A stretch of DNA of 64,000 nt. Origin: an uncultured Solirubrobacterales bacterium. Lineage in GTDB: Bacteria > Actinomycetota > Thermoleophilia > Solirubrobacterales > 70-9. Within the stretch, counting starts at the first letter, position 1. Every line of letters begins with the position of its first letter. The position numbers and the translations under genes are program-made. The notes under the pieces are model-generated. The model saw only the letters and a program-made list of their open reading frames with translations. It ran no database searches and was not told where the DNA came from. The stretch spans positions 14,870 through 78,869 of the forward strand of contig CAVOYZ010000010.1 of the NCBI GenBank assembly GCA_963700785.1. Reading direction: 5' to 3'. Shown piece after piece: positions 11,702-31,220 of the stretch.

Positions 11702-12655
11702 ATGACCACCCTGCCCGAGTTCCAGGAACCCAGCATCAGCAGCGAAGACAGCGACGAGACGAAGGGATCGTTCGTGATCGAGCCCCTCGACAAGGGGTTC
11801 GGCTACACCTACGGCAACAGCCTGCGCCGCGTCCTGCTCTCCTCGCTCGGCGGCGCGGCGATCAAGTCCGTCCGGATCGAGGGCGTCGCCCACGAGTTCT
11901 CGAACATCGACGGCGTCAAGGAGGACGTGACCGACATCGTCCTCAACCTCAAGGACATCGTGATCCGGATGCACACCGACGCGGATGAGGTCGAGGTGCC
12001 GCTCGTGGCGACCGGCCCAGGCGAGGTCACCGCGGCGGACATCGACCTGCCCGCCGGCGTTGAGATCCTCAACCCCTCGGCGCCGATCGCGACGCTGGAG
12101 AAGAAGACCAAGCTCGAGATGTACCTCAGCGTCGGTCGTGGCCGCGGCTACTCGCCGGCCGAGGAGAACAAGAGCGAGGACCAGCCGATCGGCGTGATTC
12201 CGATCGACTCGATCTTCTCGCCGATCCGCCGCGCCTCCTACCGGGTCGATTCGGCCCGGGTCGGGCAGCGGACCGACTTCGACAAGCTGACGCTGGAGGT
12301 CGAGACCGACGGCTCGCTGGAGCCGGGATCCGCTCTCCGCGAGGCGGCCGAGTTGATGATCAAGAGCCTGGCGATCTTCACCGACGCCGACCGGCTCGAC
12401 GAGTTGACCCAAACCAACGGCTCGGGACCGGGCGAGGAGCTCGGCCTCAGCGAGGGCGATGACCGCCTGATCGAGGAGCTCGAGATCGGCGTCCGCGCCT
12501 ACAACTGCCTGAAGCGCGCCGGCGTGCAGACGATCGGGGACCTGACTTCGAAGTCGTTCTCCGAGCTGACCGCGATTCCGAACTTCGGCGAGCGGTCGAT
12601 CGAGGAGGTCGTCGAGGCGCTCTCCCAGCTGGGGCTCAGCCTCCGCGAGGAGTAG
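11702..12655 (+). CDS. rpoA: DNA-directed RNA polymerase alpha subunit
   Basis: 317 aa, FVIEPLDKGFGYTYGNSLRRVLLSSL...; C-terminal domain LEIGVRAYNCLKRAGVQTIGDL. Confidence 0.97.
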   Translation: MTTLPEFQEPSISSEDSDETKGSFVIEPLDKGFGYTYGNSLRRVLLSSLGGAAIKSVRIEGVAHEFSNIDGVKEDVTDIVLNLKDIVIRMHTDADEVEVPLVATGPGEVTAADIDLPAGVEILNPSAPIATLEKKTKLEMYLSVGRGRGYSPAEENKSEDQPIGVIPIDSIFSPIRRASYRVDSARVGQRTDFDKLTLEVETDGSLEPGSALREAAELMIKSLAIFTDADRLDELTQTNGSGPGEELGLSEGDDRLIEELEIGVRAYNCLKRAGVQTIGDLTSKSFSELTAIPNFGERSIEEVVEALSQLGLSLREE

Positions 12656-12660
12656 GCGCG

Positions 12661-13014
12661 ATGCGGCACCGCAGGAGCAGGCACAAGCTGAGCCGCGATG
12701 CGGCCCATCGCAAGGCGCTGCTGAGGAACCTCAGCAAGCAGCTGATCGAGCACGAGCGGATCAAGACCTCGCAGGCGAAGGCGAAGGCGGTCAAGCCCGA
12801 GGTCGAGAAGGTGATCACCCTCGCCAAGCGCGGCGACCTGCACGCCCGCCGGCAGCTGCTGGCGCGGTTCGGTCAGGACAAGTTCGTGGTCCACAAGCTG
12901 GTCGAGGAGATCGCGCCCCGATACTCCGAGCGCCCCGGCGGCTACACGCGGATCACGAAGCTCGGTCCGCGCCGCTCGGACTCGACCGAGATGGTGTTCC
13001 TCGAGCTGGTCTAG
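12661..13014 (+). CDS. rplQ: 50S ribosomal protein L17
   Basis: 117 aa, MRHRRSRHKLSRDAAHRKALLRNL...GGYTRITKLGPRRSDSTEMVFLELV. Confidence 0.95.
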   Translation: MRHRRSRHKLSRDAAHRKALLRNLSKQLIEHERIKTSQAKAKAVKPEVEKVITLAKRGDLHARRQLLARFGQDKFVVHKLVEEIAPRYSERPGGYTRITKLGPRRSDSTEMVFLELV

Positions 13015-13063
13015 TCCGCGGGCGCCTGAGCGCGGGCGATCAATCGGAGCATCGCCGTAACCC

Positions 13064-13804
13064 GTGGCCAGCTACCGGCTCGACATCAGCTACGACGGCA
13101 CCCGGTTCCGGGGCTGGGCGCGCCAGGACGGGCTGCGGACCGTCCAGGGTGAGATCGAGGCCGCTCTGGAGAAGCTCTTCTCCGCGCCGGTGCGGTTGAC
13201 CGTCGCCGGACGGACCGACGCCGGCGTGCACGCGACCGGACAGGTAGCGAGCTTCCATTCCCCGGAGGGCCGGCGGCCGCCCGAGCAGTTCCGCCGGGCG
13301 CTCAACGCCCTGACCGCCGATGATCTGGCGATCACCGAGGTGGGCGAGGTCGCCGCCGGCTTCGACGCGCGCCGCGACGCCGTCTCGCGCCGCTACGCCT
13401 ACCGGCTCTGGGTCGACCAGGTGCAGAGCCCGTTCGAGCGCCGCTACGCCGTCCACTGGCCCTTTCCGCTCGTGCGGGAGCCGCTCGAGCGGTGCGCGGC
13501 GATGCTGATCGGGAGCCACGACTTCACCGCCTTCACCCCGACCGAGACCGAGCACGTGCGCTTCGAGCGCAACGTGATCGAAGCGGCCTGGGAGGATGAG
13601 TGCGAGCGGGTCCTGCGGTTCGAGATCGAGGCCGACGCGTTCATGCGCAACATGGTCCGGGCGCTGGTCGGGACGATGCTCGAGGTCGGCGGCGGCCGTC
13701 GCGACCCCGCTGACTTCGAGCGCCTGCTCGAGGGCCGGCCGCGCCCGGAGGGGGGCGAGACGGCCCCCGCCCGCGGGCTGTCGCTGATCGCCGTGCGGTA
13801 CTGA
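13064..13804 (+). CDS. truA: tRNA pseudouridine(38-40) synthase
   Basis: 246 aa, YDGTRFRGWARQ...AGRTDAGVHATGQVASF; usual position after rplQ. GTG start assumed. Confidence 0.92.
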   Translation: MASYRLDISYDGTRFRGWARQDGLRTVQGEIEAALEKLFSAPVRLTVAGRTDAGVHATGQVASFHSPEGRRPPEQFRRALNALTADDLAITEVGEVAAGFDARRDAVSRRYAYRLWVDQVQSPFERRYAVHWPFPLVREPLERCAAMLIGSHDFTAFTPTETEHVRFERNVIEAAWEDECERVLRFEIEADAFMRNMVRALVGTMLEVGGGRRDPADFERLLEGRPRPEGGETAPARGLSLIAVRY

Positions 13805-13837
13805 TCCGACCTCGCCGAGCCGGTTGGCCCTGGCGAG

Positions 13838-13864
13838 TTAGGGATACCTAATACCTGCTATTCT
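13838..13864 (+). promoter_or_regulatory. AT-rich operator/promoter-like element upstream of the iron permease: inverted repeat TTAGG-gata-CCTAA (13838-13851), tandem ATACCTA/ATACCT, and TATTCT -10-like hexamer (13859-13864)
   Basis: Read directly; the only AT-rich patch in the 119-nt truA-permease spacer. Confidence 0.4.
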
Positions 13865-13923
13865 CGCGACCCCGCGGCCGCTTCGGCGCCGCGACCGATC
13901 AGCAGCAAGGTGGAGGCACAGGC

Positions 13924-14691
13924 TTGGGTTCATTCGTAATCACGCTTCGGGAGGGCTTTGAGGCCGCCCTGATCGTCGGTTTGATCATGGCGTACCTAAA
14001 GAAGACCGGGAACCTCGCCGCCCACGCGCGGACCGTCTGGACCGGCGTCGGGCTGGCGATCGGCTTCAGCGTGCTGCTCGGTGCGGTTCTGTTCATCTCG
14101 GTGGGCGAGCTGGAGGGCACCGCCGAGCAGTTCTACGAGGGCATCGCGATGATCGTCGCCGCCGTCGTCGTCACCTGGATGGTCTTCTGGATGCGCAAGC
14201 AGGCTGCAACGATCGGCTCGCATCTGCGCGAGCAGGTCGGTGCCTCGCTGCTGGCCGGCGGCGGGCTCGCGCTCGCCGCGGTCGCCTTCATCGGGGTCGC
14301 GCGCGAGGGCCTGGAGACCGCGCTGTTCCTGTTCGCCTCGGTCGGGGACGACGGGGTCCTGGTGACCGTGATCGGCGGTGCGCTGGGCTTCATCGTCGCG
14401 ATCGGCCTCGGTGTCGCCTTCTACCAGGGCGCGCTGCGTCTCGACCTGAAGCGCTTCTTCACCGTGACCGGGGTGCTGGTCATCGCCTTCGCCGCCTGGC
14501 TGCTCGCCGGCGCCGTGCATGAGATCGGCGAGGTGGCCGGCAGCGAGCTGCTCGAGGGGATCGGCCCGCTGGTCGGGGCGATCTACGGGATCGCGCTCGC
14601 CGCGATCTACCTGCGCGGGATCAAGGGGCCTCCAAGCCCGGCAGGAGCTTCCGACACGGAGGCGGCTGCCGAGGCAGGCTCCAGCGCCTGA
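13924..14691 (+). CDS. FTR1/EfeU-family high-affinity iron permease
   Basis: 255 aa polytopic protein with the two family signature motifs REGFE (aa 9-13) and REGLE. TTG start preceded by ggtggagg. Confidence 0.85.
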   Translation: MGSFVITLREGFEAALIVGLIMAYLKKTGNLAAHARTVWTGVGLAIGFSVLLGAVLFISVGELEGTAEQFYEGIAMIVAAVVVTWMVFWMRKQAATIGSHLREQVGASLLAGGGLALAAVAFIGVAREGLETALFLFASVGDDGVLVTVIGGALGFIVAIGLGVAFYQGALRLDLKRFFTVTGVLVIAFAAWLLAGAVHEIGEVAGSELLEGIGPLVGAIYGIALAAIYLRGIKGPPSPAGASDTEAAAEAGSSA

Positions 14692-14732
14692 TCGAACGCC
14701 GCTCGCCGGCGCGAGCCCGCGGTCCGCGTCCA

Positions 14733-14738
14733 TAGAAT
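14733..14738 (+). promoter_or_regulatory. -10-like hexamer TAGAAT 7 nt upstream of the surE ATG (leaderless-type arrangement)
   Basis: catagaatcgcggtaATG; no Shine-Dalgarno sequence between hexamer and start codon. Confidence 0.35.
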
Positions 14739-14745
14739 CGCGGTA

Positions 14746-17594
<2,849 letters not shown>

Positions 17595-17604
17595 GCGGCG
17601 CCTG

Positions 17605-17632
17605 TTGACAGAGGCACCGGTGGTGTTAGGGT
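17605..17632 (+). promoter_or_regulatory. Sigma-70-like promoter for the hyp operon: TTGACA (17605-17610), 16-nt spacer, TAGGGT (17627-17632)
   Basis: Perfect -35 hexamer and TAnnnT -10 in the 69-nt ligA-hypC spacer. agagagg RBS precedes ATG 17664. Confidence 0.5.
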
Positions 17633-17663
17633 CGATGGGAGTTGCCGACAAGAGAGGTCCCGG

Positions 17664-17942
17664 ATGTGCTTGGCGATACCGGGCCAGGTTCTCGAGATGG
17701 TCGACGAGGAGAACCGGCTCGCGAAGGTGGATGTGGCGGGTGTCCGCCGCAACGTCAACGTCGCCCTGCTCGACGCCGAGCCGGGCGGCGTCGCGGTCGG
17801 CGACTGGGTCTTGATTCACGTCGGCTTCGCGCTCTCGAAGGTCGATCAGGAGGAGGCCCTTGCGACGCTCGAGCTGCTCGAGGGCATGGGTGCCGCCTAC
17901 GAGGCCGAGCTGGACGAGCTCAAGGGCAGCGTGATCGAGTGA
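17664..17942 (+). CDS. hypC: Hydrogenase maturation chaperone HypC/HupF
   Basis: 92 aa beginning MCLAIPGQV (essential Cys2); ...GDWVLIHVGFAL. Confidence 0.9.
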   Translation: MCLAIPGQVLEMVDEENRLAKVDVAGVRRNVNVALLDAEPGGVAVGDWVLIHVGFALSKVDQEEALATLELLEGMGAAYEAELDELKGSVIE

Positions 17943-17991
17943 GGTCGCTGCGACGACGGGCGCGATCGGGAAGCCGGAGGGGGCGGCGCCG

Positions 17992-18228
17992 GTGAGCCGT
18001 TCGCTCGATGACCGCTGCATCACCTGCGGCGACGTGGCTACGCCTCGTGAGGTCGTTGCCGTCGACGAAGCCCGGTGTCTGGCTCTCTGCCGGGACGAAC
18101 GCGACCATCGGGAGACGGTCGAGATCGGGCTGGTGCTGCCGGTCGCGCCCGGCGACCGGCTCCTGGTGCACGCGGGCACCGCGCTCGGCCACGTCCCCTC
18201 CGGCTCCGGCGGAGATCGGGCCGGATGA
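17992..18228 (+). CDS. HypC-family-like protein, atypical (no Met-Cys start; internal CITCGD)
   Basis: 78 aa, MSRSLDDRCITCGDVATPREVVAVDE...VEIGLVLPVAPGDRLLVHAGTAL parallels the HypC fold pattern (...V.L.LV....GD.VLVH.G.A). GTG start; stop overlaps the hypD ATG. Confidence 0.6.
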   Translation: MSRSLDDRCITCGDVATPREVVAVDEARCLALCRDERDHRETVEIGLVLPVAPGDRLLVHAGTALGHVPSGSGGDRAG

Positions 18229-19343
18229 TGCGCTTCGTCGATGAGTTCCGTGATCCCGAGCTGGGACGGGCCTTGACCGCCGAGATCCTCGAGCGGGTCG
18301 ACCCCGACCGCGAGTACAAGCTGATGGAGGTCTGCGGCGGCCACACCCACTCGATCTACAAGTACGGCATCGATGACCTGCTGCCGGAGAACGTCGAGTT
18401 GGTGCACGGCCCCGGCTGCCCGGTTTGCGTGATCCCGATGGGGCGGGTCGATGACGGGATCGCGATCGCCCGCAACGAGGAGGTGATCTTCACCTGCTTC
18501 GGCGACATGATGCGGGTGCCGGGGTCCGAGCAGAGCTTCGCCGACGCCAAGGCCGAGGGCGCCGACATCCGCATGGTCTACTCACCGCTCGACGCGCTGC
18601 GGATCGCGACGTCCAACCCCGACCGCACCGTCGTCTTCTTCGCGATCGGCTTCGAGACGACCGCGCCGTCGACGGCGCTGACGCTGAAGCGGGCCAAGGC
18701 GGAGGGCGTGGACAACTTCCTCTGCGTCTGCAACCACGTGACGATCGTGCCGCCGCTGCGCGCTCTGCTCGACTCCCCCGACCTCCGCCTCGACGGCTTC
18801 ATCGGACCGGGGCACGTCTCGACCGTCGTCGGCGTCCGCCCGTTCGAGTTCATCCCCGACCGGTACGGCAAGCCGCTGGTCACCTGCGGCTTCGAGCCGC
18901 TCGACATCCTTCAGGGAATCCGGATGATCCTCGCCCAGCTCGAGCAGGGTCGCTGCGAGGTCGAGAACCAGTACAGCCGGGTGGTCCCCTACGACGGGAA
19001 TCCGGCCGCGCTCGCCGTGCTGGCCGAGGTGTTCGAGCTGCGACCGCACTTCGAGTGGCGCGGCCTCGGCTTCATCAGCCAGAGCGCGCTGAAGCTCTCC
19101 GACGCGTACGCGGACTTCGATGCCGAACAGCGGTACGCGACGCCCGGCGTCCGCGTGGCTGACCCGAAGGCCTGCCAATGCGGCGAGGTGCTGAAGGGCG
19201 TGATCAAGCCCTGGGAGTGCAAGGTGTTCGGGACCGCCTGCACGCCCGAGCACGCGATCGGCACCTGCATGGTCTCGCCCGAGGGAGCCTGCGCCGCCTA
19301 CTACAACTACGGCCGCTACAGGCGTGAGCGCGAGGTGGTCTGA
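18225..19343 (+). CDS. hypD: Hydrogenase maturation protein HypD
   Basis: MMRFVDEFRDPE...MEVCGGHTHSIYKYG...HGPGCPVCV...GFETTAPS...; the upstream part of track ORF 18075-19343 is Arg/Pro-rich noise. Confidence 0.95.
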   Translation: MMRFVDEFRDPELGRALTAEILERVDPDREYKLMEVCGGHTHSIYKYGIDDLLPENVELVHGPGCPVCVIPMGRVDDGIAIARNEEVIFTCFGDMMRVPGSEQSFADAKAEGADIRMVYSPLDALRIATSNPDRTVVFFAIGFETTAPSTALTLKRAKAEGVDNFLCVCNHVTIVPPLRALLDSPDLRLDGFIGPGHVSTVVGVRPFEFIPDRYGKPLVTCGFEPLDILQGIRMILAQLEQGRCEVENQYSRVVPYDGNPAALAVLAEVFELRPHFEWRGLGFISQSALKLSDAYADFDAEQRYATPGVRVADPKACQCGEVLKGVIKPWECKVFGTACTPEHAIGTCMVSPEGACAAYYNYGRYRREREVV

Positions 19344-20449
19344 TGGCGGCTCGGAGCGACGCATCGCTGAGCGACCGCGAGCAACGGATTCTCGAGATCA
19401 TCGAGACCACGCGCGCCAAGCGCCCGAGGCTGAAGGGCGAGCGCGTGAACATGGCGCACGGGGCCGGCGGCAAGGCCACCCAGACGCTGATCGAGGGGCT
19501 GCTCGTCCCCGCTTTCGACCCACGGGCGTCCGGGCTCGCCGAGCTTGGCGACGCAGGGGTCGTGACGATCGCGGGCTCGGGGATCGCAATCACGACCGAC
19601 AGCTTCGTCGTCAAGCCGATCCGCTTTCCGGGCGGCTCGATCGGAGAGCTGGCGGTGAACGGCACGGTCAACGATCTCGCCGTTGCGGGGGCCCGGCCGG
19701 CGGCGATCAGCGTCGCGATGATCCTCGAGGAAGGGCTGCCGTTCGACGTCCTCGGGGAGGAGGTCGAGGCGGTCGCCCTGGCCGCGAACGAGGCGGGCGT
19801 CGAGATCGTCGCCGGCGATACCAAGGTGGTCGAGCGGGGGCACGCCGACGGGCTCTACATCACGACCACCGGGGTAGGTCTCGTCGATCCCCGGGCAGCG
19901 CTGAGCCCGGCCGCGATCAGGCCGGGCGATCAGGTGCTCGTCAGCGGTCCGATCGGCGAGCACGGCACCGCGATCATGCTCGCCCGCGACGAGTTTCAGC
20001 TCGACGCCGAGATCGAGTCCGACACGCAACCGCTCTGGGCGGCGGCTGACGCGCTGCTCGAGGCGACCGGAGCCGACCTGCGCTGCATGCGCGACGCGAC
20101 CCGCGGGGGCGTGGCGACGGTTCTCAACGAGCTCGCCCGGGCGAGCGGCGTCGCGATCGTCGCCAGGGAGAGCGATGTTCCGGTCAGCCCCGCGGTCGCG
20201 GGCGCCGCGGAGATCCTCGGGATCGATCCGATGTACGTCGCCAACGAGGGCCGCCTGGTCGCGTTCGTCGCGCCGGAGTCCGCCGACGCGGCACTCGAGG
20301 CTCTGCGATCGGTCCCGGGCTCGGAGCGCAGCGCCTCGATCGGCGAGGTGCGCAGCGAGCCGCCCGGCATGGTCCTGGTCGACACCGCCTTCGGCGGCAC
20401 CCGCGTCATGGACCTGCTGGCGGGCGATCCGCTGCCGAGGATCTGCTGA
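19343..20449 (+). CDS. hypE: Hydrogenase maturation protein HypE (carbamoyl dehydratase)
   Basis: 368 aa, NMAHGAGGKATQ..., AIR-synthase-like fold pattern, C-terminal PLPRIC motif. ATG overlaps the hypD stop; about 30 extra N-terminal residues relative to the HGxGG start I expect. Confidence 0.95.
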   Translation: MAARSDASLSDREQRILEIIETTRAKRPRLKGERVNMAHGAGGKATQTLIEGLLVPAFDPRASGLAELGDAGVVTIAGSGIAITTDSFVVKPIRFPGGSIGELAVNGTVNDLAVAGARPAAISVAMILEEGLPFDVLGEEVEAVALAANEAGVEIVAGDTKVVERGHADGLYITTTGVGLVDPRAALSPAAIRPGDQVLVSGPIGEHGTAIMLARDEFQLDAEIESDTQPLWAAADALLEATGADLRCMRDATRGGVATVLNELARASGVAIVARESDVPVSPAVAGAAEILGIDPMYVANEGRLVAFVAPESADAALEALRSVPGSERSASIGEVRSEPPGMVLVDTAFGGTRVMDLLAGDPLPRIC

Positions 20450-20473
20450 TCATGGTCACCGCGGTTGACGCCC

Positions 20474-20911
20474 ATGCATGAGCTCTCGGTCTCTTCGGCG
20501 ATCGTCGAGACGGTGATCCGTCACGCAGAAGGCCGGCGGGTCAACACGGTCCACCTGCAGGTCGGCACGCTGCGCCAGGTCGTTCCCGAGTCGCTCGACT
20601 TCTACTTCGCCGTCGCCAGCCGCGACACGCTCTGCGAGGGGGCGGAGCTGGACGTGGATCTGGTCGATGCGCTGATGCGCTGCAGGCAGTGCGGATGCGA
20701 GTGGGACCCGGCCCCAGAGCCGCTGCACTCCGGTGATCCCGCGGCGGCGCTGCCACGGTTCCGGTGCCCGGCCTGCGAGTCGGCGGGAGCCGAGGTGCTC
20801 GCCGGAAACGACCTGCTGATCGACTCGATCGACGTCGAGACCCAACCCGCCGTCGCCGGCAACGGCAGCTCCAACGGCCGCGATCCGCGCGATCTGCTGA
20901 AGGGCAGGTAG
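20474..20911 (+). CDS. hypA: Hydrogenase nickel-insertion protein HypA
   Basis: Begins MHELSV (the N-terminal MHE nickel motif requires ATG 20474, not the TTG at 20465). Zinc site CRQCG...CPACES. Confidence 0.9.
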   Translation: MHELSVSSAIVETVIRHAEGRRVNTVHLQVGTLRQVVPESLDFYFAVASRDTLCEGAELDVDLVDALMRCRQCGCEWDPAPEPLHSGDPAAALPRFRCPACESAGAEVLAGNDLLIDSIDVETQPAVAGNGSSNGRDPRDLLKGR

Positions 20912-20918
20912 CTGCAGC

Positions 20919-21599
20919 ATGCACCAGACCAAGGTCAAGGTCGCCGAGGACGCGCTCGACGCGAACACCACGATCGCGACCGCCAATCGGGCTGATTTCG
21001 ACCGCGCCGGCGTCGCGGTCGTCAACCTGATGAGCGCCCCGGGGGCGGGCAAGACGATGTTGCTGGAGCGCGCCCTGGCGGAGCGCGGCGATCTGCGCGT
21101 CGGGGTTCTCGAGGGAGACGTGCAGGGCTCGATCGACGCGGACCGGCTCTCCGCCCTGCATGTGCCGGTCGTTCAGATCAACACCGACTCCGGCTTCGGC
21201 GGCGAGTGCCACCTCGACGCCAACATGGTTCGCTCGGCCCTCGCCGAGCTGAGGCTCGGCGAGCTCGACCTGCTGGTCGTCGAGAACGTCGGCAACCTCG
21301 TCTGCCCGGCCGAGTTCCGGATCGGCGAGGACGCGAAGGCGATGATCTGCTCGGTCACCGAGGGGGAGGACAAGCCGCTCAAGTACCCGCTGATGTTCCG
21401 TTCCTGCGAGCTGGTGGTGATCAACAAGACGGATCTGCTTCCACATCTCGACTACGACGTCGACGCGCTGCTTGCCAACATCGACCGGGTCAACCCGGAG
21501 GCGGTCGTGATGCAGCTCAGCGCCCGCACCGGGGAGGGGGTCGATCGCTTTCGGGAGTGGCTGTTCGGCATCGCCGATCGGGCGCCGGCCGGGGGCTAG
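20919..21599 (+). CDS. hypB: Hydrogenase nickel-incorporation GTPase HypB
   Basis: 226 aa, P-loop SAPGAGKT, ENVGNLVCPA, INKTDL. No His-rich stretch or N-terminal CxxCGC motif. Confidence 0.93.
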   Translation: MHQTKVKVAEDALDANTTIATANRADFDRAGVAVVNLMSAPGAGKTMLLERALAERGDLRVGVLEGDVQGSIDADRLSALHVPVVQINTDSGFGGECHLDANMVRSALAELRLGELDLLVVENVGNLVCPAEFRIGEDAKAMICSVTEGEDKPLKYPLMFRSCELVVINKTDLLPHLDYDVDALLANIDRVNPEAVVMQLSARTGEGVDRFREWLFGIADRAPAGG

Positions 21600-21608
21600 G
21601 GGGAGCGG

Positions 21609-22874
21609 GTGGAGCTCGCCGGCGCGACGGGCCGGGACCAGCTGGCGCCGTGGCTGGAGCGGGCGCTTGCCGCGCGGCGCGAGGCCGGCTCGACGATGTT
21701 CGAGCGCGAGTCGCCACGGATCGCCCGCTGCTGCCACCGAATGGCCCAGCGCTTCGCGAGCGGCGGCCGGCTGATCTCGCTCGGCGCGGATCCCGCCGCC
21801 CGCTCCGACGCTCGTCACGTCTCGGTCGAGTTCGTGCATCCGGTGATCGTCGGCAAGCGGGCGTTGCCCGCCACCGCGCTGACGGGCGAGGGTGGCCCGC
21901 TCACGGCGCAGCTCGAGGCGGTCGTCGGTCGCGACGACATCGTGATCGGCTTCGGGCTCGGCGCCGGTGGTGCCGCCGCCGGGGAGACCGCGGAGGCGTT
22001 GGCGGCCGCTGCCGGTCATGGCTGCATGACGATCGCCTTCGGCCCCGGAGGGCCCGTCGACGGGGACGGTCACTGGCTGTTCGAGCCGCCGAGCGCGGAT
22101 CCGGCGATTCGCCAGGAGCTGGTCGAGACCCTCTACCACGTCCTCTGGGAGCTGGTTCACGTCTTCTTCGAGCACCGCGGACTGCTGGCGGGACCCGGCG
22201 ATCAGCCGTCCGCTCGGAGCCCGGCCGGCTTTCTCTACCCGTTCCTGGAGGGTGGTGAGGCCGATCTCGACGCGGTGCTCTCAGACGTGTCCGCCTCGGT
22301 GCGGATGAAGTCGGACGAGGTTGGGGAGCTGCGCGCCCAGACGTTGCGTGAGAACGCCGCCGAGCTGGCTTCCGCGGCCGAGACGCTCAGGGCCTGCTTC
22401 GAGGCCGGCGGGCGGGTGCTGGCCTTCGGCAACGGCGGCTCGGCGACGGATGCGATGGATCTCGTCGCCGACCTCCGCCTGCCCGAGGTCGCCGGATGGC
22501 GCTCCCGACCGGCGCTGGACCTCACCGAGGACACGGGAATCATCACCGCGGTCGCCAACGATGTCGGCGTTGCGGAGATCTTCCAGCGGCAGCTGATCGC
22601 ATCCGGGCGCGAGGGTGACGTGGCGGTCGCCTTCTCGACCAGCGGTGGCTCCGAGAACCTGATCGAGGGCCTCGCGGAGGCGCGACGAAGGCGGATCGGC
22701 ACGGTTGCGTTCGTCGGCTACGACGGCGGGCGAATCGTCGCCGATCGCCTCGCCGACGCGGTGATCATCAGCCGCTCTCAGCACATACCCCGGATCCAGG
22801 AGGCGCAGGCCAGCGCCTACCACCTGTTGCGGGAGCTGGTCGAGACGGCGGAGATGGGCGGGGCGCGGCAATGA
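21609..22874 (+). CDS. Tandem SIS-domain protein (degenerate N-terminal + intact GmhA/DiaA-like C-terminal domain) embedded in the hyp operon
   Basis: 421 aa. The C-half has GmhA-type motifs: GGRVLAFGNGGSATDAMDL, ANDVG...IFQRQ, STSGGSENL, VGYDGG, IPRIQEAQ. The N-half has the same spacing but altered motifs: GGRLISLGADPAARSDARH, GFGLGAGG. GTG start 9 nt after hypB; stop overlaps the hypF ATG. Confidence 0.8.
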   Translation: MELAGATGRDQLAPWLERALAARREAGSTMFERESPRIARCCHRMAQRFASGGRLISLGADPAARSDARHVSVEFVHPVIVGKRALPATALTGEGGPLTAQLEAVVGRDDIVIGFGLGAGGAAAGETAEALAAAAGHGCMTIAFGPGGPVDGDGHWLFEPPSADPAIRQELVETLYHVLWELVHVFFEHRGLLAGPGDQPSARSPAGFLYPFLEGGEADLDAVLSDVSASVRMKSDEVGELRAQTLRENAAELASAAETLRACFEAGGRVLAFGNGGSATDAMDLVADLRLPEVAGWRSRPALDLTEDTGIITAVANDVGVAEIFQRQLIASGREGDVAVAFSTSGGSENLIEGLAEARRRRIGTVAFVGYDGGRIVADRLADAVIISRSQHIPRIQEAQASAYHLLRELVETAEMGGARQ

Positions 22875-25213
22875 GCACCGCGCTCGAGAGCCGTCGGCGG
22901 GTCTGCGTCCGGGTCGAGGGCATCGTCCAGGGGGTCGGCTTCCGGCCCTACGTCCACAGGCTCGCCGGGGATCTCGACCTCGGCGGCTTCGTCCTCAACG
23001 ACGGGCGCGGGGTCCTGATCGAGGTCGAGGGCGATCGGCGCGCGGTCGAGAGCTTCCTCGAGCGGCTTCCGGCCGAGGCGCCGCCGCTCGCCCGCCTCGA
23101 GCGGATCGCGTCCGATCGGATCGCGCCCCGCGGCGAGGAGCGGTTCGCGATCGAGGCCAGCCGGGACACCGGGGCGGGCGACACCCAGATCAGTCCCGAC
23201 AACGCCACCTGCGCCGACTGCCTCTCGGAGCTGCGGGATCCCGCCGACCGGCGCTACCGCTATCCGTTCATCAACTGCACGAACTGCGGTCCCCGGTTCA
23301 CGATCGTCGCCGGCGTCCCATACGACCGGTCGCTGACGACGATGGCGGCGTTCGAGATGTGCCGGGCCTGCCGGGCCGAGTACGACGATCCCGATGATCG
23401 TCGCTTCCATGCCCAGCCCAACGCCTGCCCGGAGTGCGGACCGACGGTCCGGCTGCTCGATCCCTCGGGTGGCGAGGTGCACGAGCCGGGAGCCGACGCG
23501 GTGGCCGCGACCGGCCGGGCTCTGCGCTCCGGGCTGATCGTCGCGGTCAAGGGCATCGGCGGCTATCACCTCGCCTGCCGCGCCGACAGCGAGCCCGCCG
23601 TGGCGACGCTTCGCGCTCGCAAGCGGCGCGAGGAGAAGCCGTTCGCGGTGATGACGAGAAGCCTCGAGAGCGCCGCCTCCCTGATCGAGCTCAGCGAGGC
23701 GGAGCGGGCGCTGCTGGCCGGCCCCCAGCGGCCGATCGTGATCGCGCGGCGCCGGTCGGCCGCCTCGGTCGCCGCGTCGGTCGCCCCGGACAGCCCCGAC
23801 CTCGGCGTGATGCTCCCGTACTCGCCCCTGCACCACCTGCTGGCGGCGGACGCGGGGGTCGATCTGGTGATGACGTCCGGCAACGTGAGCGACGAGCCGA
23901 TCGCCTACGAGGATGACGAGGCGCTCGACCGGCTCGGTGCGATTGCCGATCGCCTCTGCGTTCACGATCGCAAGATCCACACTCGCACCGACGACTCCGT
24001 CGTCCGTGCGCTCGACCGGCGGCTGCGATCCGAGCCCCTGATCCTGCGCCGCTCCCGCGGCTGGGTCCCCGGCGCCCTCGACATGCCGAACGAGGCAGCC
24101 CGCCCGGTGCTGGCCTGCGGGGCTGAGCTGAAGAGCACCTTCTGCCTCGCGCGGGGGCGCCACGCCTGGGTCTCCCACCACATCGGCGATCTCAAGAACT
24201 TCGAGACCCTGACCTCGTTCCGCAGGGGGATCGAGCACTTCGAGGACCTCCTCGAGGTCGAGCCCTCGGTCGTCGCCCACGACATGCACCCCGACTACCT
24301 CTCGACCGCCTACGCCCTGGAGCGGGCGGGCGTCGAGCGCGTCGCCGTGCAGCACCACCACGCCCACCTCGCGGCGGTGCTCGCCGAGCACGGGTCCGAG
24401 GGCCCCGCGGTTGGGGCGATCTACGACGGCGTTGGATACGGGGCCGACGGCACGGCCTGGGGCGGCGAGCTGCTGGTCGGGGGCCTCGGCTCCTACGATC
24501 GCGCCGGGCTGCTGCTTCCGGTCCGCCTGCCCGGCGGCGACAAGGGCGCCCGCCAGCCCTGGCGGATGGCCTGCTCGTGGCTGGCCGCAGCCTTCGACGG
24601 AGCGCCGGAGCGGGCGCCTGAGCCGCTCGCCGGGCTCGTCGACCCCGGCGCCTGGGAGGCGGTCGCCGGGATCTGTCGGACCGGCCTGGCGTCGCCGCTG
24701 ACGACGAGCGCAGGCAGGCTGTTCGACGCGGTTGCCGCGCTCTGCGGGCTGCGGAGCGAGATCCACTACGAGGGGCAGGCCGCGATCGAGCTCGAAGCCG
24801 CCGCCGCTGCCGATCCGGTCGATCAGCAGCCGTATCCGATGCCGCTGCTCGACCAGCGTCCCGGACCGATCGTGATCGACGCCCGGCCGACGGTTCGCGC
24901 GATCGTCGCCGACCTGGATCGCGAGACCGTGCCCACGATCGCGGCCCGCTTCCACGCGGCGATCGCCACCGCCACCGCAGAGGCCTTGGGCCGGCTGGCG
25001 GAGCGACAAGGGCTCTCTGATGTCGTGCTTTCCGGTGGCGTCTTCCAGAACCGGCTGCTGCTCGAGGGTGTGGTCCCCGCTCTGTCGGCCCGCGGGCTGC
25101 GGCCGCTGCTGCCGCTGCGACTGCCGGCCAACGATGCGGCGATCGCCTACGGGCAGGCGGCGATCGCCGCCCATGCCGCGACCCCGATCGGCGCAGGCCC
25201 GGTGGCGCGGTGA
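22871..25213 (+). CDS. hypF: Carbamoyltransferase HypF
   Basis: 780 aa: acylphosphatase-like N-terminus (VRVEGIVQGVGFRPYV), two zinc-finger pairs (CADC...CTNCGPRF; CRAC...CPECGP), YrdC-like and Kae1-like domains. Confidence 0.97.
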   Translation: MSTALESRRRVCVRVEGIVQGVGFRPYVHRLAGDLDLGGFVLNDGRGVLIEVEGDRRAVESFLERLPAEAPPLARLERIASDRIAPRGEERFAIEASRDTGAGDTQISPDNATCADCLSELRDPADRRYRYPFINCTNCGPRFTIVAGVPYDRSLTTMAAFEMCRACRAEYDDPDDRRFHAQPNACPECGPTVRLLDPSGGEVHEPGADAVAATGRALRSGLIVAVKGIGGYHLACRADSEPAVATLRARKRREEKPFAVMTRSLESAASLIELSEAERALLAGPQRPIVIARRRSAASVAASVAPDSPDLGVMLPYSPLHHLLAADAGVDLVMTSGNVSDEPIAYEDDEALDRLGAIADRLCVHDRKIHTRTDDSVVRALDRRLRSEPLILRRSRGWVPGALDMPNEAARPVLACGAELKSTFCLARGRHAWVSHHIGDLKNFETLTSFRRGIEHFEDLLEVEPSVVAHDMHPDYLSTAYALERAGVERVAVQHHHAHLAAVLAEHGSEGPAVGAIYDGVGYGADGTAWGGELLVGGLGSYDRAGLLLPVRLPGGDKGARQPWRMACSWLAAAFDGAPERAPEPLAGLVDPGAWEAVAGICRTGLASPLTTSAGRLFDAVAALCGLRSEIHYEGQAAIELEAAAAADPVDQQPYPMPLLDQRPGPIVIDARPTVRAIVADLDRETVPTIAARFHAAIATATAEALGRLAERQGLSDVVLSGGVFQNRLLLEGVVPALSARGLRPLLPLRLPANDAAIAYGQAAIAAHAATPIGAGPVAR

Positions 25214-25986
25214 GCTTCGAGTTCCTGTTCACGCCGCTCGAGCAGGTCGACGCCGAGCTCACCGAGCTGTTCGCCGCGGCGCCGCTGCTGGTCGCGCTCG
25301 GTGCGGCCCTGTTGCTCGGTCTCCGTCACGCCTCCGATCCCGATCACCTGGTCGCCGTCACCTCGTTGGTCGCCCGTGACGATCGCGGCGTTCGCTCGGC
25401 GTTCAGGATCGGGGCCTGGTGGGGGCTCGGACATGCGCTCGTTCTGATCGCGCTCGGCATGCCGCTGATCCTGCTCAAGTCGTCGCTGCCGAGCTGGCTC
25501 GAACGCGGCGCGGAGATCGGCGTCGGAGTGATCATCGTCGTGCTCGCCGGGCGACTGATCGGCAAGTGGGTTCGAGGCGACTACCGGGCGGCCGGCCACC
25601 GCCACGATCCGGGGGCGCCCGGCTCGGGGCCGGCCGGCGTGCACCGGCATCTGCAACCCGCGGGCGGCGCGGGCCACACCCATCCTGCGGCCGAGGACGC
25701 CCGGACGCCGGGGCAGGCGTTCGCGATCGGCGCGATCCACGGCCTGGCGGGCACCGGTGCGGTCGTCGTCCTGTTGATCGCGTCGCTGCCGACTCGTCTC
25801 GAGGCGGCCGCCGCGCTCGCCGTCTTCGCGCCGATGTCGATCGTCTCGATGTCGTTCGTGACGGCGGCGCTTGCCTGGACCCTGACCCGCCCGTTCGTCG
25901 AGCCGGTCTACCGGAGCGTGCTGATCCCGGGCCTGGGGCTGTTCGGGCTGCTGTTCGGTGTCTGGTACGCGGCGCTCGGCGCCTGA
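25210..25986 (+). CDS. Short NicO/NiCoT-related (UreH-like) nickel/cobalt transporter
   Basis: 258 aa, about 6 TM segments, signature GLRHASDPDH (HxxxxDH of NiCoT-type permeases). Central loop has three HxH motifs (GHRHD, VHRHL, GHTHP). GTG start overlaps the hypF stop. Confidence 0.7.
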   Translation: MSFEFLFTPLEQVDAELTELFAAAPLLVALGAALLLGLRHASDPDHLVAVTSLVARDDRGVRSAFRIGAWWGLGHALVLIALGMPLILLKSSLPSWLERGAEIGVGVIIVVLAGRLIGKWVRGDYRAAGHRHDPGAPGSGPAGVHRHLQPAGGAGHTHPAAEDARTPGQAFAIGAIHGLAGTGAVVVLLIASLPTRLEAAAALAVFAPMSIVSMSFVTAALAWTLTRPFVEPVYRSVLIPGLGLFGLLFGVWYAALGA

Positions 25987-27044: not shown

Positions 27045-27647
27045 TCAGGCTACCCGGGAACGCGCGGGCGCGAGGATCAGCTCGACGTATCCGTCGGCGA
27101 TCTGCTCGGCCCTCAGCGGGCCCCGGGGCCGGTACCACTGGACCGTGTGGTTGACCATCCCGAGCAGCGCGTAGCGGGCGAGCTCGGCGCTGGGGACTGC
27201 GGCGGCATCCAGTGCCCCGGCCAGCAGCTGCTCGAACTCCTTGCGGCTGCGGCGCACCCCGCGCCACTGATCGCCGTGATCGACCACGTGACGGACCTGG
27301 GTGAAGACCAGCAGGTGGTCCCGGTGCGCGACCACGTGCGAGACCCAGAGCCGCACCAGGTCGCGGAGCTGATCCTCGGCCGGCGAGGAATCCGTTGCGA
27401 GCAGCTCGCGTGAGGCCGCGAGCAGCGGCTCCATGAGCTGGTCGCAGATCTCGATCAGGAGCTCCTCCTTGCCGTGGAAGTAGTGGTAGAGCGCACCAGT
27501 CGCCAGCCCGAGCCGCGCCGCCAGCTCCGACACCGAGGTCTCGGCGTACCCGTGCTCGGCGAAGATCCGCGCCGACGAGCCGACCACCTCGGCTCGGCGG
27601 CGGTCGTAGCGGGCGCGGAGGGCCGGGCGTGTGGGTCTGGCGGCCAC
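27045..27647 (-). CDS. TetR-family transcriptional regulator
   Basis: [39 protein letters not shown] place the start at GTG 27647 ([10 protein letters not shown]...) because the longer track ORF (to 27872) would overlap the divergent carboxylase gene. Confidence 0.85.
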
Positions 27648-27681
27648 CGCTGCAGATGGTAGCCCAATCTCCGAGCGTTCG

Positions 27682-27717
27682 TTCGAACATCGAATGAATA
27701 TTCGGTATATTGAGCCG
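27682..27717 (+). promoter_or_regulatory. Promoter/operator module: TTCGAA (-35-like), CGAA-N6-TTCG inverted repeat, TATATT (27706-27711), 6 nt, then ATG 27718 (leaderless-type)
   Basis: Read directly. 15-mer ttcggtatattgagc (27701-27715) plus CGAA (27691-27694) and TT..A of the -35 recur in the same register at 62821-62854. Confidence 0.5.
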
Positions 27718-29659
27718 ATGGAGGGCAGCGATTCAGGCGTCCAGGGGCTCGGGCCGGTACTGGTCGCCAACCGCGGCGAGATCTCGGTCCGGGTGCAGCG
27801 CAGCGCTCGGGAGCTCGGTCTGCGGACGGTCGCCGTCTTCGCCGCCCCCGATCGCGGCGCCCCGCACGCCACGCTCGCCGACGAGTCGGTCCTGGTCTCG
27901 AGCTATCTCGACTCCGACGAGCTGATCCGCGCCGCGCGGGTGAGCGGCGCCCGCTCGGTCCATCCCGGCTACGGCTTTCTCAGCGAGAACGCGGACTTCG
28001 CCCGGGCGGTCGATCGGGCGGGGATCACCTGGATCGGGCCGCCGGCGGCGGCGATCGAGCTGATGGGGGACAAGGCCCGCTCGAAGCAGCTCGCATTGGA
28101 GTCGGGCGTCCCGGTCGTCCCCGGCACCGAGGGCGCCGACGCGAGCGCCGAGCAGATCCGCGCCCTCGCGGCGGAGCACGGCTACCCGCTGATCATCAAG
28201 GCGCTTGCCGGCGGCGGCGGCAAGGGCATGCGGGTCGTTGCCGCCGCCGACGACCTCGACGCCGCGCTTGAGGCCGCCCGGCGCGAGGCGGAGGCTGCCT
28301 TCGGCGACGGGCGGGTGCTGGCGGAGCGCTACCTGGAGCGGCCGCGCCACATCGAGATCCAGGTGCTCGCCGACTCGCATGGCAATGCGGTCCACCTCGG
28401 GGAGCGCGAGTGCTCGCTGCAGCGACGCCATCAGAAGGTGATCGAGGAGGCCCCTTCGCCGATCGTCGACGCCCGCTTGCGGGAGGAGATGGGATCGGCC
28501 GCCGTTGCGCTGGCGATCGCCTGCGACTACGAGGGAGCCGGCACGGTCGAGTTCATCGTTCCCGCCTCCGGCGAGCGCTTCTTCTTTCTCGAGATGAACA
28601 CGCGGCTGCAGGTTGAGCACCCGGTCACCGAGATGGTTTGGGGAGTCGACCTCGTCTGCCAGCAGCTTCGCCTCGCCGCCGGTGAGCGGCTCGACGAGGG
28701 TCTGGCCTCGTCAGGGCCCGTCGGGCATGCGGTCGAGGCCCGCCTGTACGCCGAGGACCCTGCAGCGGGCTTTCTGCCCTCGACCGGCGTCGTCAGGCGC
28801 TGGTGCGAGCCGGTCGGCGCCGGGATCCGGATCGACTCGGGCGTCGCGGCGGGAAGTGTGGTCGGCACCGAGTTCGATCCGATGCTCGCGAAGCTGATCG
28901 CTCACGGGCCCGACCGGCCGACGGCGCTCGGCCGCCTCGACCGGGCGCTCGCAGAGCTCGAGCTGCTCGGCGTCACCAGCAGCGCCGCGTTCAGCCGCGC
29001 CCTGCTCGCCGATCCGGAGGTCAGGGCCGGGCGGCTTGACACGACGCTGCTCGAACGGCTGCTGGAGGGGCTCGACCTGACCGTCCCCGACGACCTGATC
29101 GCCGCGGGCGCACTCGGGCTGTTTCTCGCCGACACCGAGGGCTTCGGGATCGGCGCCGGTCCCTGGCGTCGGCGCTTTGCTCGGCTCGGCGGAGATCCGG
29201 ATCGGCGACGGCGGGATCAGCGGCGCGGTTCGGTTCGCGCGGGCCGAGGCGCGACGGCTCGACGACGGCTCGCTGCTCTGCGAGCTCGACGGGCTCGCCA
29301 GGACCTATGCGGCATCGCTTGACGGGGACGCGATCTGGATCGCGCGTGACGGCCACCAGCTGCGGATGGAGCCGGAGCGCAGGACGCGCGGGGCTCCCGA
29401 GGCGGCGGGCTCGCTCGAGGCGCCGATGCCCGGCGTGGTGCTGATCGTCGAGGCCGCCAACGGAGACCGGGTCGAGCGCGGCCAGGTCCTGCTCGTGCTC
29501 GAATCGATGAAGATGGAGCTGCAGGTGACCGCACCGGCCGCCGGCGTGGTCGAGGGTCTCGAGCTGAGGGTCGGAGATCGCGTCGCCCAGGGCGACGCCC
29601 TGGCCGTGATCGGCGCCGATCCTGATCAGGGTCCCGCCGACGGGATCGAGGAGGGCTGA
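27718..29659 (+). CDS. Biotin-dependent acyl-CoA carboxylase alpha subunit (biotin carboxylase + BCCP), MCCase-alpha-like; frame disrupted near 29180
   Basis: [12 protein letters not shown]..., ATP-grasp [24 protein letters not shown] in ORF 27631-29322. The biotinyl domain with ESMKMEL is in ORF 29177-29659, one frame off. Confidence 0.85.
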
Positions 29660-31220
29660 TGAGTCACCGCGATGCGCACGAGGAGCTGATCGCCGATCTC
29701 GAGCGGCGCCTGACCCGCGCTCGCGCCGGCGGCGGCCCGAGCGCAATGGAGCGGCACGTCGGCCGCGGCAAGCTTCCGGCCCGCGATCGGGTCGAGCTGC
29801 TCTGCGATCCGGGCGCCCCGTTTCTCGAGCTCTCGCCGCTCGCGGCCGAGGAGATGTACGGGGGTGATGCGCCCGGCGCCGGGATCGTCACCGGGGTCGG
29901 CTCGTCGAGGGCCGGCGCTGCGCGATCGTTGCCAACGACGCGACCGTGAAGGGCGGCACCTACTACCCGATCACGGTCAAGAAGCACCTGCGCGCTCAGG
30001 AGGTCGCGCTCGACAACAACCTCCCCTGCGTCTACCTGGTCGACTCGGGGGGCGCCTTCCTGCCGATGCAGGACGAGGTCTTTCCCGATCGCGAGCACTT
30101 CGGGCGGATCTTCTTCAACCAGGCGACGATGTCGAAGCGCGGCATCCCGCAGATCAGCGCGGTGATGGGGTCCTGCACGGCCGGTGGTGCATACGTGCCG
30201 GCGATGAGCGACGAGACCGTGATCGTCCGCGGGCAGGGAACGATCTTCCTCGGCGGCCCGCCGCTGGTCAAGGCGGCCACCGGCGAGGAGGTGAGCGCCG
30301 AGGATCTGGGTGGAGGTGACGTGCACGCCCGTCGCTCCGGCGTCGTCGATCACCTCGCCGACGACGATCAGCACGCGCTCGAGATCGTCCGCTCGATCAT
30401 CGCGACCCTTCCTCCCCAGCAGTCTGCCCCCTGGGAGCGACGCGAGTCTCGGCCCCCGGCTGCGGACCCGGACGGACTGCTCGATCTGGTCCCGCTCGAT
30501 CCCCGCACGCCCTTCGCGGTCCACGAGGTGCTCCGCCGGATCGTCGACGGCTCCGAGCTGGACGAGTTCAAGGAGCTCTACGGGACCACCGTCGTCTGCG
30601 CGTTCGCCCACATCGACGGCCACCGGGTCGGGGTGATCGCCAACAACGGCATCCTCTTCAGCGAGTCGGCGCTGAAGGCCGCGCACTTCATCGAGCTCTG
30701 CGATCGCCGCGGCATTCCGATCGTCTTCGTCCAGAACATCAGCGGCTTCATGGTCGGCAGGGACTACGAGGCGGGCGGAATCGCGAAGGACGGTGCGAAG
30801 TTGGTCACCGCCGTCTCCTGTGCCCGGGTCCCGAAGCTGACCGTGATCATCGGCGGCTCCTACGGGGCCGGGAACTACGGGATGTGCGGGCGGGCCTACT
30901 CGCCGCGCTTTCTGTTCATCTGGCCGAACGCGAGGATCAGCGTGATGGGCGGCGAGCAGGCGGCCACCGTGCTGAGCACGATCCGCCGCGAGCGGGCCGA
31001 GGCGGCCGGGGACGAGTGGCCCCCTGAGCAGGAGGAGGATTTCAAGCGTCGCCTCCGCGACCAGTTCGAGCATCAGGGCAACCCGATCTACTCGACGGCG
31101 CGGCTCTGGGACGACGGCGTGATCGACCCGCGCCAGACGCGAGATGTCCTCGCAAAGGCCCTCGCGGCCTGCGCCCCGGCGCCGCTCGCCGAGCTCGGCT
31201 ACGGAGTGTTCAGAATGTAG
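29659..31220 (+). CDS. Acyl-CoA carboxylase carboxyltransferase (beta) subunit, 3-methylcrotonyl-CoA carboxylase-beta-like; frame disrupted near 29900
   Basis: ORF 29659-29949 (..[34 protein letters not shown]) continues in ORF 29946-31220. That frame read upstream gives [60 protein letters not shown] one-base deletion in ggcc fits. Confidence 0.88.

Follow-up and report, generated by a model that had tools for sequence, protein, structure and literature searches.

A tandem SIS-domain protein encoded between hypB and hypF in a Solirubrobacterales bacterium: two diverged halves and a possible composite site in hydrogenase maturation

GmhA, the sedoheptulose-7-phosphate isomerase (EC 5.3.1.28; PDB 2x3y/2xbl, 2i22, 1x92, 5i01), is a member of the sugar isomerase (SIS) superfamily with a metal site shared between subunits. 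It has been shown that its Zn site consists of H61, E65, and H183 from a single monomer together with Q175 of the neighboring monomer (PMC5387315), and that the Zn ligands H64, E68, Q175, and H183 (B. pseudomallei numbering) are completely conserved amongst orthologues (PMC5705639). Residues from three chains are found in each active site (PMC11056994). In DiaA, the DnaA initiator-associating protein (2yva/4u6n), the same fold has been recruited for a partner-binding assembly factor. In this study, a gene for two fused SIS domains of the GmhA/DiaA type was analyzed, located at positions 21609..22874 (+) in the hyp (hydrogenase maturation) operon of an uncultured Solirubrobacterales bacterium. 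The window referred to below is the whole stretch of 64,000 nt from this genome (assembly GCA_963700785.1, contig CAVOYZ010000010.1, positions 14,870 to 78,869), in which all window coordinates are given.

GmhA-like genes have been noted beside [NiFe]-hydrogenase genes before. They appear as a passing annotation, without assigned function, in actinobacterial group 1h clusters (PMC11879354, PMC5900883, PMC3505973), as the initial annotation of the window had stated for some actinobacterial high-affinity hydrogenase clusters. The gene order in Frankia is hypF2-hypC2b-hypothetical-gmhA-hypE2 (PMC11879354), and in Mycobacterium indicus pranii two adjacent "phosphoheptose isomerase" genes are located between hypF and hypE (PMC3505973). 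In acidobacterial group 1h clusters gmhA is marked alongside glutaredoxin (PMC5900883), GmhA appears in a list of maturation proteins induced in Acidithiobacillus ferrooxidans (PMC7735108), and SIS is listed as a recurrent [NiFe]-hydrogenase neighbor (PMC12727194). The gene-cluster association is already known, from figure legends and one review-type statement, and the window gene is a member of a large family that has been noticed and is uncharacterized in function. No description of a complementary two-domain logic was found in the searchable literature. New here are the composite-site reading, the series of single, split, and fused forms, the fusions to HypC, glutaredoxin, and HypF, and the tracking of group 1h and 2a hydrogenases.

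Atmospheric H2 can sustain soil bacteria that possess hydrogenases of group 1h (Hhy/AH) or group 2a (Huc), enzymes whose assembly takes place in oxygen. The aerobic assembly of the Fe(CN)2CO cofactor and the roles of the many conserved non-Hyp cluster genes are the question on which the SIS module may bear. To a specialist in hydrogenase maturation the presence of the gene is unsurprising; the site logic and the fusion partners are useful for designing first experiments.

Two diverged SIS domains in one protein

The open reading frame (ORF) begins with GTG and encodes 421 aa plus a stop. It starts 9 nt after the end of hypB (21599), with a Shine-Dalgarno-like GGGGAG in the gap, and its stop shares 4 nt (ATGA) with the start of hypF at 22871. 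These junctions were confirmed as given in the initial annotation, and all of the motifs quoted there were found: LGADPAA (aa 58-64) and FGLGAGG (115-121) in the N half, and GNGGS (274-278), STSG (343-346), and IPRIQE (393-398) in the C half. Only SIS families matched the protein in Pfam and NCBIfam; no homology to the canonical HypA-F proteins was detected in these scans, and its earlier placement outside the HypABCDEF set holds.

For the C half (aa 215-421), a match to Pfam SIS_2 (PF13580) covers aa 236-369 with an E-value of 1.1e-19 (71 bits, cut-off 27), and the PDB matches of this half are GmhA structures at ~1e-25 and DiaA at ~1e-17. The N half of the window protein was not detected in the Pfam scan; stand-alone N-type relatives do match SIS_2. 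When the N half alone was searched against the PDB (phmmer), B. pseudomallei GmhA (2xbl) was matched with E 2.2e-6 over aa 32-183, nearly the whole domain. Profiles of the two halves, each from 35 homologues, align with each other at 98.2% probability (hhalign; E 4.3e-14, 147 columns, 28% identity). The AlphaFold2 model computed from the family alignment (pLDDT 86.1, pTM 0.86) contains two alpha/beta domains, with low confidence in the linker (aa 191-217), and its best PDB neighbors in Foldseek are GmhA and DiaA (TM 0.86-0.93, normalized on the target). By profile match and by the alpha/beta SIS fold, both halves belong to the GmhA-like branch of the SIS superfamily. The window protein is a covalent pseudo-dimer of two diverged GmhA/DiaA-type SIS domains, which arose by internal duplication; this part of the initial annotation stands.

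Both halves were aligned to GmhA of E. coli and B. pseudomallei. The N-type SIS domain (aa ~30-190, 21696..22178, +) has degenerate phosphate loops and has kept the metal triad. Its first family signature, RSDARHVSVEFVHPVIVGKRALPA (aa 65-88, 21801..21872, +), includes D67, H70, and E74, the equivalents of GmhA D58, H61, and E65 (E. coli numbering), and the family-specific H77. The second, QELVETLYHVLWELVHVFFEH (aa 169-189, 22113..22175, +), includes Q169 and H177, equivalent to GmhA Q172 and H180 in the same numbering, as well as the family-specific W180, E181, and H184. In place of the phosphate loops GNGGS and STSG the N half has GADPA and FGLGAGG, and ~13 aa of the TAxGNDxG segment are missing. 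These three elements are all intact in the C-type SIS domain (aa ~218-417, 22260..22859, +), where Asp is found at two metal-ligand positions. The first phosphate loop is part of GNGGSATDAMDLVADL (aa 274-289, 22428..22475, +), in which D281 is kept while D284 and D288 occupy the positions of the GmhA ligands His61 and Glu65. The second is STSGGS (aa 343-348, 22635..22652, +). The segment IPRIQEAQASAYH (aa 393-405, 22785..22823, +) carries Q397, which corresponds to the Gln that GmhA donates in trans, and H405, which corresponds to GmhA H180; the Gln and His of the C-terminal helix are kept in both halves. Between the two domains lies a linker (aa 191-217, 22179..22259, +) that is conserved despite the low model confidence. 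It ends in LYPFL (aa 209-213), the motif that also opens stand-alone C-type and proteobacterial SIS proteins, and its position is the site of a HypC-like domain or gene in other lineages.

The initial annotation had described the C half as carrying the full GmhA motif set and the N half as a dead site. The first description fails at Asp284 and Asp288. The second is not borne out by conservation: 35 full-length homologues that share 61-85% identity with the window protein have a mean pairwise identity of 69.4% in the N core and 70.3% in the C core, with 53 of 161 and 59 of 196 columns invariant, respectively. These values point to equal purifying selection on both halves. The N-half signatures RSDARHVxVEFVHPVIVGKRALPA and QELxETxYHVLWELVHVFF are invariant in this set. 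A set of 19 diverse fused proteins, at 37-60% identity to the window N half, has H70, E74, H77, E170, W180, E181, and H184 invariant and GNGGS, TSG, Q397, and H405 nearly so; Q169, D284, D288, and H405 are also kept.

The clearest pattern is seen in Actinomycetes, where the two domains occur as separate proteins. The GmhA key columns were scored in 117 N-type and 114 C-type proteins that stand alone. The His/Glu/His triad is present in 117/117 N-type proteins; in C-type proteins the first His is replaced by D, A, E, or Q and the Glu by L, T, or M, while the second His is kept in 113/114. The phosphate loops GNGGS and STSGxS, the ND of the sugar loop (scored at the Asn column), and the trans Gln show the reverse: each is present in 114/114 C-type proteins and lost from the N-type, with Lys in place of the Gln in 111 of 117. 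Of the additional family residues, the His at Glu+3 is found in 117/117 N-type and 61/114 C-type proteins, Trp and Glu at +3 and +4 after the last His are found in all proteins of both types (117/117 and 114/114), and the His at +7 is found in 117/117 N-type proteins and lost from the C-type, where 103 of 114 have Gln. The losses in the two halves are complementary, and neither half is a complete GmhA. A homo-oligomer with composite sites that duplicated and retained a single one of them would be expected to show such a pattern. Complementary degeneration therefore argues for one composite site instead of one live and one dead site, so that of the earlier proposal the pseudo-dimer is retained and the dead site is not.

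Gene arrangements and associated hydrogenases

The family was found to be large. An exhaustive search with the N half returned proteins of both fused (~400 aa) and stand-alone (~200 aa) form, in 1115 clusters (50% identity) with an E-value of 1e-3 or lower and 610 with 1e-10 or lower. Two N-half peptide patterns, one of them VEFVHPVI, occur at no fewer than 600 places in species-representative genomes (185,579 species genomes), of which at least 596 were confirmed. The best 80 of these confirmed loci, all with fused genes, are the related loci considered below; they belong to Thermoleophilia (Solirubrobacterales, Thermoleophilaceae, Conexibacter, Gaiellales, Miltoncostaeaceae) and Gemmatimonadota. 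The signatures H-x-[AS]-V-E-F-[VL]-H-P and Y-H-x-L-W-[ED]-L-V-H, which stand at aa 70-78 and 176-184 of the window protein, are invariant in the 35 close homologues, the 19 diverse fused proteins, and the 117 stand-alone N-type proteins, and are present in the single SIS proteins of C. necator and Afipia.

Linkage to hyp genes is conserved beyond the genome studied here. The gene directly upstream of the SIS gene is hypB in 73 of the 78 related loci with upstream room, and hypF follows within 150 nt in 55 of the 74 with downstream room and within 700 nt in 11 more (66/74). Overall, about 90% of the 80 loci have the SIS gene placed between hypB and hypF. In 10 of the 10 wider-spaced loci examined, most of the gap between the SIS gene and hypF is filled by a small conserved membrane-protein gene. 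This gene of ~150-165 codons lies directly 3' of the SIS fusion (L001, 11194-11694; L009, L015, L032, L041, L042, L044, L064, L070, L077), encodes a predicted membrane protein with the motifs AAMAMTGMR and ADHLLYG, and is absent from the window. The next gene is hypF in nine of the ten; none was detected in L032. Counting single, split, and fused forms, the hyp linkage of the SIS module spans Actinomycetota, Gemmatimonadota, Deinococcota, Bacillota, and Pseudomonadota.

The module has been found in three kinds of arrangement. In proteobacterial aerobic H2 oxidizers one SIS protein of ~230 aa is encoded between hypC and hypD, as in C. necator H16 pHG1 (H16_RS31885) and Afipia carboxidovorans pHCG3B (OCA4_RS17190). 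Its single chain contains an LYPFL N-terminus, GNGGS, CDAxH(I/V)AVEF(L/V)HPV, the ND loop, STSGNS, R(V/I)QE, and YHILWDLVH. The GmhA-type features of the N and C halves are united in it, consistent with an ancestral homo-oligomer. The window protein shares with it the LYPFL motif, HxAVEF(V/L)HPV, YHILW(D/E)LVH, and the association with hypF, hypC, hypD, and hypE; the single protein, presumably a homo-oligomer, has metal ligands and phosphate loops in one domain, whereas in the window protein these roles are split over two. The C. necator gene belongs to the cluster that encodes the group 1h hydrogenase of known structure.

The second arrangement is the pair of separate genes in actinomycetes and Mycobacterium, to which the "hypothetical protein + gmhA" of Frankia synton-2 and MIP5345/MIP5346 belong. 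Their domains are orthologous to those of the window protein, with the same complementary pattern and linkage to hypF and hypE. They differ in being separate polypeptides, usually with a HypC-like gene or domain (C-x4-C-V-T-C) between them, and in the full loss of the second site (Lys for the N-type Gln; Leu or Thr at the C-type Glu position), where the window protein keeps Q169, D284, and D288. In Actinomadura viridis genes for SIS-N (208 aa), a HypC-like protein (92 aa), SIS-C (216 aa), and hypF follow each other with successive 4-nt overlaps. A Mycobacterium intracellulare plasmid has the order hypF, hypC, a 236-aa fusion of SIS-N and a HypC-like domain, SIS-C, hypE, hypC, and hypD. The HypC-like gene or domain of the actinomycete pair (L081, 10624-10902; L083, 8932-9642) is without the N-terminal Met-Cys of HypC and has C-x4-C-V-T-C; it seems to be a separate HypC subfamily specific to the SIS module.

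Fused forms make up the third arrangement. SIS-N, HypC, and SIS-C are found in a single chain in the metagenomic proteins P0176 and P0260, SIS-SIS-glutaredoxin fusions in P0164 and P0186, and in P0230 SIS-SIS runs into the N-terminal domains of HypF, which may be read-through. On plasmid pTHTHE1601 of Thermus thermophilus and on a Sulfobacillus acidophilus plasmid the order is hypE, fused SIS-SIS, a glutaredoxin-like gene, and hypF. The window version is a plain fusion with the linker in place of the HypC-like insert, and neither a glutaredoxin-like partner nor a SIS-linked HypC-like partner was found in the window or the Thermoleophilia loci. These domain fusions provide Rosetta-stone links that tie the SIS module to HypC, glutaredoxin, and HypF. 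Taken together, the arrangements form an evolutionary series from one complete protein to two genes and then to a fusion. The glutaredoxin-like protein is small and has a CPYT motif (L084, 11154-11414; L087, 10102-10329; P0164, P0186); the Thermus copy is annotated as "Uxx-star family glutaredoxin-like (seleno)protein". On the Sulfobacillus acidophilus plasmid (CP003180.1; L087, 9001-10082) the fused SIS-SIS gene was matched as two tblastn pieces and is without a feature in the PLSDB gene table, which is incomplete and omits pseudogenes; this copy is perhaps frameshifted or a pseudogene.

Hydrogenase genes next to the module were assigned by their large subunits. In 55 of the 61 informative related loci, hypE and hypA/hypB are separated by a hydrogenase structural block of ~7 kb. 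In L001 this block encodes a small subunit, a 594-aa large subunit, a NifU-Rieske protein, DUF5947 and DUF6084 proteins, a protein of unknown family, and a maturation protease, and the large subunit matches HofG of the C. necator group 1h enzyme (5aa5) with an E-value of 7.8e-273. Large subunits beside the SIS modules of M. intracellulare and Sulfobacillus match M. smegmatis Huc (7utd/7uus, group 2a) with E-values of 0 and 1.8e-255, respectively. On these matches the module appears to track group 1h and 2a hydrogenases across the five phyla, the window itself having no hydrogenase structural genes among its scanned ORFs. The window has the rarer contiguous hypCDEAB layout that is also found in L027, L046, L063, L068, and L078.

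Possible role in hydrogenase maturation

The explanation that we favor, and hold to be reasonably probable, is that the SIS fusion is an accessory maturation factor of oxygen-tolerant group 1h and 2a [NiFe]-hydrogenases, in which GmhA-derived domains have subfunctionalized around one composite site. In GmhA the metal site is composite across subunits, which provides the logic for a hetero(pseudo)dimer in the window protein, and the Zn-ligand positions and phosphate loops of GmhA are matched by the two halves taken together. The N-type domain would supply the metal triad H70, E74, and H177 with the family-specific H77, E181, and H184; the C-type domain would add Q397, as the Gln donated in trans, along with all the loops that bind phosphate and sugar (GNGGS, T..ANDxG, and STSGxS). 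One complete site, accommodating both a metal and a phosphorylated ligand, should then form at the N/C interface, either within one chain or between the chains of a fusion dimer, a geometry that we infer from the residue patterns and published GmhA structures. Fused lineages may also have a second, altered site made up of D284, D288, H405, and Q169. The protein would most likely act with HypC, HypD, HypE, and HypF at the stage of Fe(CN)2CO assembly, not at nickel insertion, and would probably bind or convert a small phosphorylated molecule, presumably a metabolite, for synthesis or transfer of cofactor ligands under oxic conditions. Read in this manner, a gene mis-annotated as "sedoheptulose-7-phosphate isomerase" becomes a defined object, a putative composite-site hetero(pseudo)dimer whose candidate ligand residues can be named.

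Several observations weigh against this explanation. The fused N half keeps Q169 and the C half keeps D284, D288, and H405, and a second site or another partition of roles is possible. The window gene adjoins hypB, which encodes the nickel-insertion GTPase, so that a nickel-related role is also possible. No hydrogenase structural genes were found among the scanned ORFs of the window, and no functional study or experiment on any family member was found in the searchable full-text literature.

The best-surviving alternative, which we regard as possible but rather unlikely, is a non-catalytic scaffold by analogy with DiaA. The protein would dock HypC, HypD, HypE, HypF, and perhaps glutaredoxin, and would protect air-sensitive cofactor intermediates at hand-over. 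The top structural matches include DiaA (4u6n, 2yva, TM 0.90-0.91), as do the top sequence matches (~1e-17). However, DiaA is a single-domain homotetramer acting on DnaA in an unlike genomic context, and its likeness to the window protein is one of fold and sequence only. Fusions to HypC, glutaredoxin, and the HypF N-terminus, as well as the translational coupling to hypF, are in line with docking, and the conserved linker of low model confidence could be a docking motif. A scaffold leaves unexplained why the exact GmhA set (His/Glu/His, trans Gln, both phosphate loops, ND loop) is invariant and why its members are divided between the two paralogues in complementary fashion, even across great evolutionary distances.

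A more specific enzymatic role has also been considered, and we think it improbable: the composite site would make or deliver a precursor of the diatomic ligands in air, for example by a HypX-independent route to CO. CO would be derived from a phosphorylated carbon compound and passed directly to the HypC-like carrier, which the linked glutaredoxin would keep reduced. Such a route is compatible with the conserved catalytic constellation together with the HypC and glutaredoxin fusions, and with the fact that the examined clusters are those of hydrogenases of aerobes (four typed, as 1h or 2a; the Afipia cluster is untyped). It is also compatible with the absence of HypX from 88 loci and several self-contained plasmid clusters: no HypX homologue was found in the window or in 87 related and comparison loci (+/-10 kb each), nor on the Thermus, M. 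intracellulare, Sulfobacillus, and Afipia plasmids. HypX and the SIS gene co-occur, however, on pHG1 and on Bradyrhizobium plasmids. HypX is likewise an accessory, non-universal Hyp factor of aerobic H2 oxidizers, but its fold (formyltransferase and enoyl-CoA hydratase) is unrelated, and the SIS protein could at most be a functional analogue. If true, this route would fill a gap in how the atmospheric-H2-oxidizing Hhy and Huc enzymes mature in air.

Instead, the composite site might bind a sugar phosphate and tune HypF or HypC, coupling the maturation of a starvation-type hydrogenase to carbon status; enzymes of groups 1h and 2a are induced when carbon is limiting. SIS domains are the phosphosugar sensors of MurR/RpiR/AlsR regulators, which give weak NCBIfam matches here. 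A sensor is nevertheless quite unlikely, as no DNA-binding or signaling domain is present in the SIS fusion, the conserved metal triad with its extra His and Glu is more typical of catalysis, and the fusion partners are maturation proteins, not regulators.

We find it equally hard to credit that the protein handles nickel or iron, with a His/Glu-rich N-type face (H70, E74, H77, E170, E173, H177, E181, H184) storing metal or delivering it to HypA/HypB or HypC/HypD. Counted from the GmhA ligands, the additional conserved His and Glu residues are found one or two turns further along the helix, the SIS gene is directly 3' of hypB both in the window and in about 90% of its close relatives, and a putative nickel permease ends the operon. 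In other phyla, however, the module is placed beside hypC, hypD, hypE, or hypF, with hypA and hypB elsewhere, and the strict conservation of the C-type phosphate and sugar loops is left unexplained.

That the gene encodes an ordinary GmhA for heptose synthesis, hitch-hiking in the hyp operon, is very improbable and was rejected even though homologues are named "D-sedoheptulose 7-phosphate isomerase" in public annotations and GmhA models are the best family matches: the scores are far below the curated NCBIfam equivalog cut-offs (TIGR00441, 134 vs 276 bits; NF010546, 127 vs 209; NF001628, 94 vs 265; NF010547, 70.5 vs 320), neither half joins all four Zn ligands (found in the N half) to intact phosphate loops (found in the C half), the hyp linkage is conserved across five phyla, and no heptose-pathway genes (gmhB, hldE/hddA, and similar) are among the window ORFs scanned. 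The fold of GmhA is shared by both halves (TM up to 0.93 on target), but the window protein consists of two diverged, incomplete copies that are fused and encoded in a hyp operon rather than a heptose pathway, with His77, Trp180, Glu181, and His184 as additional invariant residues of its family. The automatic heptose-isomerase annotation in hundreds of genomes is probably wrong.

The hyp operon and other genes of the window

The SIS gene is part of a tight set of hyp genes on the + strand. The first, hypC (17664..17942), encodes 92 aa with the N-terminus MCLAIPG.... It is followed by hypD (18075..19343), hypE (19343..20449), hypA (20465..20911), and hypB (20919..21599), each identified by Pfam/NCBIfam, and, after the SIS gene, by a full-length hypF (22871..25213) with acylphosphatase, Zn-finger, YrdC, and Kae1-like domains. 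The last gene (25210..25986) encodes 258 aa and overlaps the hypF stop codon by 4 nt. Its product has sub-threshold nickel-transporter matches only (Pfam NicO/HoxN-type, E 3e-5; NCBIfam NicT, 4e-6), and it may be a divergent nickel permease closing the hyp operon. About a dozen of the 80 related loci likewise have a homologue of this ORF 3' of hypF. From hypD to the 258-aa ORF the genes are separated by gaps of 15 nt or less, or overlap by 1-4 nt. A promoter and terminator scan of the operon gave nothing above chance, and the operon boundaries are those of gene spacing only.

Directly upstream of the hyp operon (window 11702-25986 as a whole) are rpoA, a 117-aa ORF, truA, a gene for an FTR1-type iron permease, surE, and ligA. 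The 117-aa ORF after rpoA is located where rplQ would be expected; this label is based on position, the ORF itself being outside the scanned set. Downstream, two ORFs in different frames (29659-29949 and 29946-31220, +) lie 3' of a biotin carboxylase gene (27631-29322) and match positions 4-53 and then 69-479 of the carboxyl-transferase Pfam profile, which suggests a frameshifted or split gene for an acyl-CoA carboxylase beta-subunit.

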